Source: a virus. From it: a stretch of DNA of 5,684 nt. Positions 1,575 to 5,684 of the stretch are shown piece after piece. Location: positions 1 to 5,684 of the IMG/VR virus record IMGVR_UViG_3300029528_000021; one strand, written 5' to 3'. The translations under genes and the position numbers were made by a program. The notes under the pieces were generated by a model. The model was not told the DNA's origin, made no database searches, and was given only the letters and a program-made list of their open reading frames with translations. Position 1 is the first letter of the stretch. Every line of letters begins with the position of its first letter.

Positions 1575-1588
1575 GGCGCTTTAGCGCC
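1575..1588. other. Short GC hairpin GGCGC-TTTA-GCGCC just upstream of the promoter (minus-strand sense)
   Basis: Perfect 5-bp GC stem with 4-nt loop, flanked by T/A runs. Possible attenuator, ssDNA structural signal or protein site. Confidence 0.3.
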
Positions 1589-1650
1589 TTGCCGTGTGGA
1601 GCGTATGCGGAACTCGGCTAAATCCATTCATTTTTAGCGCTGTGCGCGTT

Positions 1651-1761
1651 TTCAACAGTTTCAACAGTTTCAACAGGTTTTCAACAAAATATTGCACAAT
1701 GATTTCCGTCATTTTGACGAACTTTCAACATTTCAACAAATTTTCAACAAATCTTTCAACA
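1651..1761. repeat. Iteron array: 8 direct copies of TTCAACA (TGTTGAAA on the coding strand) in two clusters of four, spaced roughly one helical turn apart
   Basis: Plus-strand copies start at 1651, 1660, 1669, 1680 and at 1724, 1732, 1743, 1755, spaced 8-12 bp. Degenerate copies also occur between the clusters (TTGACGA 1714-1720, TTGCACAA 1692-1699). All are intergenic. Confidence 0.7.
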
Positions 1762-1861
1762 ATGTTTTTTGTTTTTTATTTACGTTTTAACGTTAAATTT
1801 TAGTACTTATCAACTTTTCCACATTGCCTACTACTACTTCTACAACAAGTTAATATTATAT

Positions 1862-1907
1862 CGCGCGTGCGCGCGTGCGCGCTACCGCGCGTGTGCGCAC
1901 GTGCGCT
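1862..1907. repeat. GC-rich alternating purine-pyrimidine tract (CGCGCGTG x2 + CGCGC, then CGCGCGTGTGCGCACGTGCGC) with perfect 12-bp palindrome GCGCACGTGCGC at 1895-1906
   Basis: Two 21-nt runs of strict Py-Pu alternation (1862-1882 and 1886-1906) in an otherwise AT-rich genome. Flanked by TATA-rich sequence. Potential Z-DNA or cruciform and imperfect long hairpin (arms match 14/20). Confidence 0.6.
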
Positions 1908-1965
1908 ATAGATTTAGTAATTTGATAGACTGAGTAGTCTGATACATGGAGTCTTTAGATGACAA

Positions 1966-3920: not shown

Positions 3921-5588
3921 TTACAGTTTGTACAAGCCCGGTACACTGTACAACGGCATCCGTCTTGTGGTTTTGTTTGCTACTCGGATAGCGCCGAAAA
4001 ATTGCGGCTCATCCTGCATGACGAGTGTGCGTGCAATTTCGGTCTTGCCTTCTCCCATCCAGCCTTGCGATAGTGTTGGTACGGTTGAATAATTGTCTGC
4101 GTAGTGCCAGAAATCCAACGTGCCTGTTGCGTTGCTTCGCATGAGGCCGCTTACCCGGTTTGGTTTCATTCGGTAGTCCGCCCAGGCCTCCTGATAGCCG
4201 AACGTTTCTTCGTCCGTTGCCGTGCCGGTCAACATGATTTCCTTTTTCTTTACAGGCTGCTCTCCCAGGTTTGCAAACTGTGGTACATAGTAGTCCAGTC
4301 TGTCCTCTCGGCTCCAGAAACGTTCCAAGCCCTGCTGATAACTGCGATTGTGTCGCACACAACAGACACCAATTACAAACCCATGCTCTTCAAAAGATTT
4401 GGTAAAAGAGCTTTCGTTTATCGGTGTCACTGACATTGCACCAGTTTCGCCCAGCGGTGACCTATCGTTTTCCGCTGTCTGCACGATTTGGTTGATATTG
4501 ACGTGGTATCTGCCACCGCCCAGGTATTCTGGAATCTGTACCGTTTTGTCGCTGATATTTACATTCCACAGTGCTTGTACCTGTTCGCGGTATCGGCTGC
4601 CGCCTCGTGCGAGCGCTTCGTAGTACTGCTGTACTGCTACGGCTTTTCTTAAGCCGTTGATGGTTGCTGCGGTTACACTGCTTAGGTCTGCACCTAAGTA
4701 TCCGCCTTTTGGAGCAGTGCCTTGGCTTGTTGATGCGCCTACAACATGTGTAGCTCTTGGGTCGCTTACTGTTCCTACTTCATTGTATATTTCTGGTGCT
4801 CCTGAGCCTGTACCGTTCAAGTAAATGCTATTGCTTGGTGTCATCTTTTTTTTCAGGTCGGTGCTGTCGAATAGGTTTACTGCTGCGTTACCTTCCATCG
4901 GCAGTGTTACTGCCGGCCCGCGCTGCGGATACGGTAAGCAGCTGGTAAAATAGTCATGGAATTTGTTTACCGGTAAGCACCTGCCACCGCTTATTGCTTT
5001 TATTAAGATTTGGTTTATATCGCTTTCGTTTTCTTTGCCGTCTTGATAATTTATATTGTTGTCATCGGTTTTGATGGTTGCTGCATTATCTACGTTTTCA
5101 TCTCTGAAAAATTCATTCCAGATTTTTACATACGCTCTGATTGGTAGTGCGTTTACTTTAAAAACGTTTTCAATTAGCGTTGGGACTCCCATGTAATCTA
5201 GGATTGATCCTTCATACGGTTCCGGATTTTCTTTTCTTCCGTTGATGGTGATCATGGGCACTTTATAGTCTTTTTTCGGCATCCACGGCGTTTCTTCTAC
5301 TTCTCCCATGAACTGCTTGAAATTATCCCATAGGATTCGGTTTGGACAATAGAAGTAATAGAAGTCAATGAATGCATCGTCCATCACCGGATACTTCGGT
5401 GTGCTCATTCGAATGATTGCTGCTGTATTTACGTTGAAGGTATCGCCCGGTAATACTTCGTCAACATAAAATGGAATCAGCTTGCCGGAATCGAACGTTG
5501 TTAAAATTGTCTGGTCGCGGTTGAACCGCGTTCGACTTGCTTTCATTTCTGGAATCTGATTAAAGTGTCTTTCATTGTTTCGATTCAC
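3921..5588 (-). CDS. VP1: Major capsid protein VP1 (phiX174 F homolog), 555 aa, Gokushovirinae type
   Basis: N-terminus NERHFNQIP...RTRFNRDQTILTTFDSGKLIPFYVDEVLPGDTF matches the conserved gokushovirus VP1 N-terminal block (HxF..IP, RSxFDRS, TTFDAGxLIP, DEVLPGDTF). Length appropriate. GTG start 5588..5586 with perfect SD AAGGAGGA and a 6-nt spacer. The nearest in-frame ATG (codon 15) lacks an SD and would remove the conserved residues. Confidence 0.95.
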   Translation of the reverse strand: MNRNNERHFNQIPEMKASRTRFNRDQTILTTFDSGKLIPFYVDEVLPGDTFNVNTAAIIRMSTPKYPVMDDAFIDFYYFYCPNRILWDNFKQFMGEVEETPWMPKKDYKVPMITINGRKENPEPYEGSILDYMGVPTLIENVFKVNALPIRAYVKIWNEFFRDENVDNAATIKTDDNNINYQDGKENESDINQILIKAISGGRCLPVNKFHDYFTSCLPYPQRGPAVTLPMEGNAAVNLFDSTDLKKKMTPSNSIYLNGTGSGAPEIYNEVGTVSDPRATHVVGASTSQGTAPKGGYLGADLSSVTAATINGLRKAVAVQQYYEALARGGSRYREQVQALWNVNISDKTVQIPEYLGGGRYHVNINQIVQTAENDRSPLGETGAMSVTPINESSFTKSFEEHGFVIGVCCVRHNRSYQQGLERFWSREDRLDYYVPQFANLGEQPVKKKEIMLTGTATDEETFGYQEAWADYRMKPNRVSGLMRSNATGTLDFWHYADNYSTVPTLSQGWMGEGKTEIARTLVMQDEPQFFGAIRVANKTTRRMPLYSVPGLYKL

Positions 5589-5684
5589 TTTTATTCCTCC
5601 TTTGCTTCAGTTTCTTTTTTCGGTTCTGCTGCTGCCATTTTTTGCAGTTCTTCGAGTTTCATGGCGTTTGCCTGTGCGGTCGCT
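5586..5684. repeat. Terminal redundancy: 5586-5684 is identical to 1-99, marking a circular genome of 5585 bp (window wraps around)
   Basis: Direct comparison of the first and last 99 bases (cacttttattcctcctttgcttcag...gcggtcgct). The VP1 start codon and the 130-aa ORF stop are therefore adjacent on the circle. Confidence 0.9.

Follow-up and report, generated by a model that had tools for sequence, protein, structure and literature searches.

A chromosomal-origin-like cassette of predicted DnaA boxes and DnaA-trios in a gokushovirus-type microvirus

The basal unwinding system (BUS) of bacterial chromosomal origins consists of DnaA boxes, a short spacer, DnaA-trios of the sequence 3'-GAT-5', and AT-rich DNA (PMC8287927; PMC6669920). 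By the published rule, such a system requires a box with no more than two mismatches to TTATCCACA or to the box of the species concerned, a spacer of no more than 16 nt, and at least three trios (PMC8287927). The same layout is present in IMGVR_UViG_3300029528_000021, a gokushovirus-type microvirus whose record of 5,684 nt was analysed in full and is called the window here. It occupies part of the 497-nt intergenic region between the gene for the replication initiator Rep (VP4) and the endolysin gene, where eight short direct repeats form its most conspicuous component. Microviridae rank with the most abundant and persistent human gut phages, and for most of them no host is known. The model for their replication is phiX174, with only the phage's own nickase and host elongation factors taking part. 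We consider it most likely that the eight repeats of this phage are binding sites for the host initiator DnaA, predicted here from their occurrence at bacterial origins, and that they belong to a compact copy of the chromosomal unwinding module. At a rough probability of 0.6, the repeats, two further boxes, a spacer, trios, and an AT-rich tract together make up a 213-bp BUS-like cassette that would give the phage a second origin independent of Rep.

The repeat, TGTTGAAA, is present in eight exact copies, all on the minus strand of the window and read as TTTCAACA on the plus strand. The copies form two clusters of four (Table 1), and no other exact copy occurs on either strand of the 5,684 bases. 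Dinucleotide-preserving shuffles contained 0.33 copies on average and three at most, and none of 200 reached eight. An earlier note on this DNA had described eight regular repeats far in excess of chance, absent from the rest of the window and lying between the Rep gene and a lysis gene. These observations hold, with each of the start positions that it gave being one base too high. Its one-turn spacing is a fair description of the mean within clusters (10.0 nt) and not of the phase, which is loose: the start-to-start distances are 9, 9, and 11 nt in the first cluster, 44 nt between the clusters, and 8, 11, and 12 nt in the second. The note had also placed degenerate copies between the clusters. 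No copy with one mismatch or fewer was found in that interval (1687-1722), and the degenerate copies lie instead at 1807-1815 (TTATCAACT) and 1815-1823 (TTTTCCACA).

Alignment of related genomes had been proposed as a check on repeat number and phase. The array is indeed kept in relatives, but it holds from four to nine exact copies among those from IMG/VR with Rep proteins 88-97% identical, and the number changes in steps of 8-12 nt. Because close relatives differ by steps of this size, the region is taken to be non-coding. A coding repeat was rejected on the same grounds, as the insertions and deletions are not multiples of three. A structured RNA was rejected as well, with no Rfam match in the window.

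The repeat is not restricted to phages. We scanned 185,579 species genomes, one per bacterial or archaeal species, for three tandem copies, and the matches included many contigs of Ruminococcus, Ruminococcaceae, Oscillospiraceae, and Clostridia. None of the matching bacterial contigs encodes microvirus proteins. In ten loci (loci carry L numbers here) the arrays directly adjoin dnaA, with the order rnpA, array, dnaA, array, dnaN in L258 and dnaA followed by arrays in L210, and these loci are chromosomal origins. Across eight host dnaA-dnaN spacers, TTTTCAACA is the most frequent 9-mer (68 copies, mostly oriented toward the trios), and the classical box TTTTCCACA is mixed with it. Judged by its origin context, the repeat behaves as a DnaA box, being clustered beside dnaA and occupying the box position of the BUS. 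The DnaA proteins of six hosts with origins rich in TTTTCAACA (L205, L210, L220, L247, L258, and L286) have RDHSTIVY in the recognition helix of domain IV, where B. subtilis has RDHTTVIH and Aquifex has KDHTTVIH. The RDHSTIVY helix would fit an altered box specificity and may be the basis for the variant box.

The published BUS rule selects a single site in the window and none in 2,000 dinucleotide shuffles. At this site, the boxes at 1815-1823 and 1807-1815 differ from TTATCCACA at one and two positions, respectively, the spacer of 4 bp (1824-1827) falls within the permitted 0-16 bp, and five consecutive trios (1828-1842) exceed the minimum of three consecutive 3'-NAN-5' units with the consensus 3'-GAT-5'. 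AT-rich DNA follows as TTAATATTATAT (1850-1861), and an AT-rich tract is kept at this place in all cassettes. The densest part of the window carries nine boxes per 220 bp on one strand, against a maximum of two in shuffles.

The correspondence with the host origins extends to the junction between boxes and trios. The phage reads TTATCAAC TTTTCCACA-TTGC-CTA CTA CTA CTT CTA-CAACAAG-TTAATATTATAT on the plus strand (1807-1861). The equivalent stretch is TTTTCCACA-GCCC-CTACTACTACTACTA-AT-rich in L258, TTTTCCACA G TTTCAACA-TACC-(CTA)5-AT-rich in L210, and TTTTCAACA G TTTCAACA-CCCC-(CTA)5 in L205 and L286. The host spacers are thus also 4 nt long (GCCC, TACC, or CCCC), and the trio run (CTA)5 stands at the equivalent place. 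The features of the phage cassette and its surroundings are collected in Table 1.

Table 1. Features of the 5,684-nt window, with the predicted elements of the cassette listed first; conservation values are column conservation over 78 cassettes.
Feature	Position	Strand	Details
Whole conserved non-coding oriC-like cassette, 213 bp	1648-1860	+	box arrays, tandem boxes, trios, and AT-rich DNA in this order
First repeat cluster	1650-1657, 1659-1666, 1668-1675, 1679-1686		plus-strand coordinates
Second repeat cluster	1723-1730, 1731-1738, 1742-1749, 1754-1761		plus-strand coordinates
DnaA-box array B (predicted)	1649-1686	+	four boxes head to tail: TTTTCAACA, GTTTCAACA, GTTTCAACA, TTTTCAACA; conservation 0.92
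Inter-array spacer	1687-1722		palindrome CGTCA-N3-TGACG at 1707-1719; conservation 0.84
DnaA-box array A (predicted)	1723-1761	+	four boxes head to tail, spacing 8, 11, 12; conservation 0.91
T-rich tract and palindrome TTTAACGTTAAA (1786-1797)	1762-1806		conservation 0.76-0.84
Tandem trio-proximal DnaA boxes (predicted)	1807-1823	+	TTATCAACT (1807-1815) and TTTTCCACA (1815-1823); 2 and 1 mismatches to TTATCCACA
Box-trio spacer TTGC, 4 nt	1824-1827	+	conservation 0.38, the sole poorly conserved stretch of the module
Five DnaA-trios CTA CTA CTA CTT CTA	1828-1842	+	3'-GAT GAT GAT GAA GAT-5' on the minus strand; conservation 0.92
CAACAAG, then AT-rich tract TTAATATTATAT (1850-1861)	1843-1861	+	presumed unwinding element; conservation 0.99 and 0.90
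GC-rich imperfect palindrome, one cassette border	1857-1910		GCGCAC/GTGCGC units; 25-nt arms, 80% complementary; fold −21.3 kcal/mol, z −1.47; conservation 0.65
GC-rich element GCGCTGTGCGCG, other cassette border	1637-1648		CGCGCACAGCGC on the minus strand; flanks the cassette in both orientation classes
Stem-loop just past the Rep stop codon, outside the cassette	1966-1998	−	11-bp stem, loop CTATCAAGTAA; z −4.69
Major capsid protein VP1	5588-3921	−	
Pilot protein VP2	3882-3025	−	
VP4/Rep, HUH rolling-circle initiator	3028-2009	−	Pfam REP_ORF2-G2P 2.4e-18; phrog_942 1.2e-109
Best sigma-70-type promoter of the window	1555→1527	−	TTGACA-17-TGgTAAAAT; 11/12 matches, extended −10; upstream of the endolysin gene
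Peptidase M15 endolysin	1511-1110	−	Pfam Peptidase_M15_3 3.8e-22; phrog_894 endolysin 9.4e-43
Small ORFs, VP8-like basic peptide, VP5, scaffold VP3		−	other genes

Modules of the canonical type are also found in longer DNAs. A scan for canonical boxes followed by trios (TTATCCACA…CTACTACTA) returned 89 matches in IMG/VR, none of which encodes relatives of the window's VP1, Rep, or M15 proteins. Many of them resemble genuine BUS modules in larger contigs. L321, L337, L389, L334, L347, L376, L387, and others carry modules such as TTATCCACA TTATCCACA GCCC CTACTACTA, with 6-10 DnaA boxes nearby. The modules in "viral" IMG/VR contigs of 20-160 kb are either miscalled host origins or parts of larger phages or plasmids with oriC-like modules. 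Dense TGTTGAAA arrays on both strands occur separately in Thermotogota and Chloroflexi genomes, namely in L230, L271, L306 (Mesoaciditoga), L264 (Athalassotoga), and L236, L204 (Anaerolineae). The array of L230 lies near groEL.

Among microviruses, the cassette is widespread and has sharp borders. Matches to 1648-1860 occur in 62 GenBank microvirus records, including some with no other DNA similarity to the window genome. It is kept in more than 80 microvirus contigs with Rep identities of 38-97%, and blastn borders fall exactly at 1648 and 1860 in 87 microvirus loci, both orientations covered. The layout is the same in all cassettes examined, including those of the most divergent genomes. A screen for boxes plus trios was passed by 59 of the 62 close relatives with enough flanking sequence; two more of the 62, L041 and L056, carry 9-10 boxes and variant trio runs. 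L009 (IMGVR_UViG_3300045988_086966, 8,781 nt) is the only one of 62 loci that lacks the cassette. In its region 4100-6600, a Rep that is 95% identical to that of the window and its hairpin are followed by unrelated sequence with neither the GC palindrome nor the cassette. This record is much longer than a microvirus genome and may be chimeric or represent another kind of element.

Within the cassette, the boxes (0.89-0.92 overall) and the trios, the first three of which are nearly invariant, are constrained and the spacer between them is free, which is the pattern predicted by the unwinding model. At the trio-proximal position, some relatives have TTTTCCACA/T, and others have TTTCAACA or TTTTCAACA. 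This alternation at one position indicates that the "iteron" and the textbook DnaA box can replace each other. Conservation peaks in CAACAAGTTA at 1843-1853 (0.99), which is absent from host origins and reads TAACTTGTTG on the minus strand. Neither of the palindromes at 1707-1719 and 1786-1797 was found in the eight host dnaA-dnaN spacers, and both may be sites for a second factor.

These comparisons bear directly on the protein that the repeats might bind. The earlier note interpreted them as a phased initiator-binding array of the type found in origins and named VP4 Rep as the protein to examine. The first part of this interpretation is supported by the origin-like character of the region, and the second is probably wrong. 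Short direct repeats beside rep in a small single-stranded DNA (ssDNA) replicon do recall the iterons of plasmids, geminiviruses, and circoviruses, which are bound by the replicon's own initiator. However, the exact motif recurs in microviruses with no more than 38-58% Rep identity and with 39-55% VP1 identity, and the repeat thus does not co-vary with Rep; it is the same across Reps that range from 38% to 97% identity. The same repeat fills the oriC of Ruminococcus and Oscillospiraceae chromosomes, where it is dominant and where no such Rep exists. Placement relative to a nick-site hairpin is not fixed either, the cassette being inverted in 10 of 87 loci and located upstream of VP4 in KT264784. 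We therefore hold binding by Rep to be highly improbable.

The cassette is inverted relative to the genes in 10 of the 87 loci, representing at least two lineages. Independent genomes from GenBank bear this out: the cassette is inverted and located after VP4 in KT264801 (raccoon, Rep 48% identical), inverted and located between VP2 and VP4 in KT264784 (human, Rep 38% identical), and oriented as in the window in MT135268 (pig, Rep 50% identical). The inversions and the placement between VP2 and VP4 fit a double-stranded, self-contained cis element. Both cassette borders (1857-1910 and 1637-1648) are alternating purine-pyrimidine tracts inside an otherwise AT-rich region. These quasi-palindromic borders could mediate inversion of the cassette through recombination, a suggestion drawn from their sequence.

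A transcriptional role fits this mobility poorly. DnaA and Spo0A double as transcription factors, and 0A boxes serve phi29; the array could accordingly hold DnaA- or Spo0A-type operators for the endolysin promoter, or form a cluster of promoters or a sigma-factor sink, as the earlier note had suggested. TTGAAA is part of every unit, the minus strand has a strong promoter about 95 bp further downstream, and the 0A box TGTCGAA is one base removed from TGTTGAA. Yet only one of the eight TTGAAA elements has a −10 partner at 16-18 bp, and this pair is weak (9/12). In addition, the inverted genomes and KT264784 differ in the distance, orientation, or neighbouring gene of the array, and the trios and AT-rich tract would be left without a role. 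We judge a function of this type very unlikely.

Another proposal of the earlier note was that the repeats mark the start of complementary-strand synthesis on the incoming viral DNA. A signal of this kind is required by ssDNA phages and has yet to be located in those of the gokushovirus type. Strand-specific structure is not apparent, though, because neither strand folds better than its shuffles (z −0.51 and +0.25). Direct repeats are also incapable of forming the hairpins used by known single-strand origins, and the cassette occurs in both orientations. This is the least probable of the explanations that we considered.

Independence from orientation and position, together with a copy number that varies from four to nine, is also what is expected of a pure titration site, and a DnaA sink is the main rival to an origin-like function. 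The boxes would then bind host DnaA and the cassette would never fire. DnaA would be titrated by the many copies of the replicative form, and either host initiation would be blocked or DnaA-controlled genes would be derepressed, to the benefit of the phage. This explanation draws on the same DnaA-box evidence as ours. Multicopy DnaA-box clusters inhibit initiation in B. subtilis, and datA and multicopy B. subtilis inc regions titrate DnaA. In T5-like phages, eight DnaA boxes are retained within a region that is believed not to serve as an origin (bioRxiv 10.1101/866236). A sink, however, needs only boxes, yet the trios, CAACAAG, and the AT-rich tract are equally or more conserved (0.90-0.99), and the geometry of box, spacer, and trio equals that of host origins. 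Pure titration thus explains the boxes, the variation in copy number, and the orientation independence, but not the trios or the AT-rich tract, and we consider it unlikely as the whole explanation.

An origin-like function would account for these remaining parts. On this basis we infer DnaA binding, unwinding, helicase loading, and a benefit to the phage, in the following order. Once the phage DNA is double-stranded as the replicative form, host DnaA-ATP would fill the box arrays and the tandem boxes. From the boxes next to the trios, DnaA would then extend along the trio strand, and the adjacent AT-rich DNA would be opened. Helicase loading would follow, so that initiation driven by the host initiator on the replicative form is the most likely use of the cassette. 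It would serve as a second origin, independent of Rep, beside rolling-circle replication from a stem-loop adjacent to the Rep gene. As a side effect, a certain amount of host DnaA would inevitably be titrated.

Several observations weigh against this interpretation. The eight repeats depart from the classical consensus TTWTNCACA by having A instead of C at position 6, and the box at 1815-1823 (TTTTCCACA) is the only one that fits. The status of the repeats as DnaA boxes therefore rests on their place in host oriC rather than on biochemistry. Not all genome matches of the repeat scan are origins, some others being coding repeats or unexplained arrays; coding repeats also account for the unrelated matches L192, L225, and L251. 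A Ruminococcus or Oscillospiraceae host is deduced mainly from the motif, an argument that is circular in part; independent hints are limited to strong Shine-Dalgarno sites, the sigma-70-type promoter, and the gut sources of relatives. Moreover, we know of no need for DnaA in a rolling-circle phage. The conserved trios and AT-rich tract argue for unwinding and are silent on what follows it. Finally, the DnaA model offers no explanation for the invariant, phage-specific CAACAAGTTA or for the two palindromes (1707-1719 and 1786-1797).

A separate stem-loop lies just past the Rep stop codon and outside the cassette. Its loop, (C)TATCAAGTAA, is conserved, and its covarying stems differ completely between lineages. 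The stem-loop is also present in L092, L120, L145, L155, L174, L194, L408, and L410. In every locus found by a TATCAAG-seeded search, it is on the Rep-sense strand regardless of cassette orientation; this search found none in L103 or L151. KT264784 has a related hairpin, recognized by eye, with the loop ATAGACAAGTAAG just upstream of VP4. The complement of the loop, ACTTGATAG, is similar to the nick motif CTTG^ATA of phiX174 and pC194, although it lies on the antisense strand. A conserved candidate nick motif in a hairpin loop next to rep, as expected of a double-strand origin for an HUH initiator, is found in the stem-loop at 1966-1998 and not in the cassette. The stem-loop is likely to be the Rep-dependent rolling-circle origin or another single-strand signal, as far as its sequence and position indicate. 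The genome thus appears to hold a Rep-linked hairpin origin and an independent DnaA module.

The presence of this hairpin also counts against a combined scheme in which DnaA assists rolling-circle initiation. In such a scheme, melting of the AT-rich tract by DnaA would expose a Rep nick site within the invariant TAACTTGTTG of the minus strand, and an inverted cassette would switch the strand that is displaced and packaged. HUH nucleases require a single-stranded substrate, and TAACTTGTTG resembles the phiX174 site CAACTTG^ATA. Also in favour of the scheme is CAACAAGTTA, the best-conserved part of the cassette (0.99) and one that host origins lack. However, the stem-loop on the Rep side has the look of an ordinary HUH origin, given the conservation of its loop and the covariation of its stems, and in inverted genomes the putative nick site would be antisense, for which Microviridae offer no precedent. 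We regard the combined scheme as quite unlikely. More tentatively than the DnaA module itself, and with some doubt, we can picture a phage with two origins: a Rep-dependent rolling-circle origin and a captured or mimicked oriC module, by which the double-stranded form would act as a DnaA-driven "minichromosome".

The genome as a whole is that of a gokushovirus-type microvirus. Bases 1-99 are identical to bases 5586-5684, and this terminal direct repeat of 99 nt identifies the window as a circularly permuted, complete circular genome of 5,585 nt. Every real gene is on the minus strand, and the closest GenBank relatives are gokushoviruses from human and pig gut with about 84% DNA identity. The endolysin gene is preceded by the near-consensus promoter with an extended −10 and a strong Shine-Dalgarno sequence (AGAGAGGTGA; 1527-1555 and 1575-1588, minus strand), with the hairpin GGCGCTAAAGCGCC just upstream; signals of this kind are typical of Firmicutes. 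The M15 endolysin is 74-76% identical in L103, L130, and L151, whereas VP1 and Rep of these loci are only about 38-43% identical to those of the window. This difference points to module exchange among phages.

If the proposed function is correct, an oriC-type DnaA module conserved in a large clade of gut phages would mean that these phages plug directly into the control of host initiation, with a mechanism for either long-term carriage or the shutdown of host replication. With two origins, these phages, the smallest known, would gain a carrier state resembling that of plasmids in Gram-positive anaerobes of the gut, in step with the host cell cycle. The box variant points to Ruminococcus and Oscillospiraceae as probable hosts of the clade, and a host-specific DnaA-box variant would provide a direct read-out of host range that is applicable to other uncultured phages. 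The cassette is also a natural, minimal origin-like element of 213 bp, available in two orientations and with four to nine boxes, for studies of DnaA-trio unwinding.

Literature searches found nothing relevant on DnaA boxes, iterons, or a defined origin in Microviridae or gokushoviruses, in agreement with the remark of the earlier note that such arrays are not described features of gokushoviruses, and no description of DnaA-trios in any phage. Comparisons must therefore be made with other replicons. The theta origins of P1 (oriR), F, pSC101, and RK2 combine DnaA boxes with Rep iterons. Like the phage cassette, they recruit host DnaA to a mobile replicon through boxes beside an AT-rich region, but these plasmids rely on their own iteron-binding Rep, whereas the phage has no second repeat family and its Rep is an HUH nickase. 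The iterons of geminiviruses, circoviruses, and rolling-circle plasmids are likewise short direct repeats near rep in small circular ssDNA replicons. These iterons co-vary with Rep and adjoin the nick-site hairpin; the phage repeats, in contrast, stay the same with widely divergent Reps and are shared with host oriC. Use of DnaA by a single-stranded replicon, as would apply to the phage, is reportedly seen at the A site of the DnaA-dependent "ABC primosome" on single-stranded plasmid DNA, attributed to Masai and Arai in 1990. At that A site, one DnaA box is made double-stranded by a hairpin, whereas the phage boxes are direct repeats without a hairpin.

Among phages, the nearest parallel is in T5-like phages, which have eight conserved DnaA or DnaA-like boxes, including the C6-to-A variants TTATCAACA, in the non-coding injection-stop region (bioRxiv 10.1101/866236). 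The T5 boxes are paired in inverted repeats, no trios or unwinding element have been reported for them, and their proposed role is in halting DNA injection at the membrane, not in replication (bioRxiv 10.1101/866236). The chromosomal BUS of Firmicutes and others (PMC8287927; PMC6669920) shares with the phage cassette its tandem boxes, spacer, trios, and AT-rich DNA, as well as arrays that face the trios, and the Ruminococcus and Oscillospiraceae origins share even the 4-nt spacer and the five trios. The phage version differs in residing in a 5.6-kb ssDNA rolling-circle phage rather than beside dnaA and dnaN, and in having about 10 boxes, compared with 12-23 per dnaA-dnaN spacer in box-rich host origins. 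It also has additional invariant parts (CAACAAGTTA and two palindromes) and behaves as a cassette, with two orientations and two positions. Mobile replicons with DnaA boxes were already known; what is new is that an unwinding module of the chromosomal type lies in a rolling-circle phage with ssDNA.

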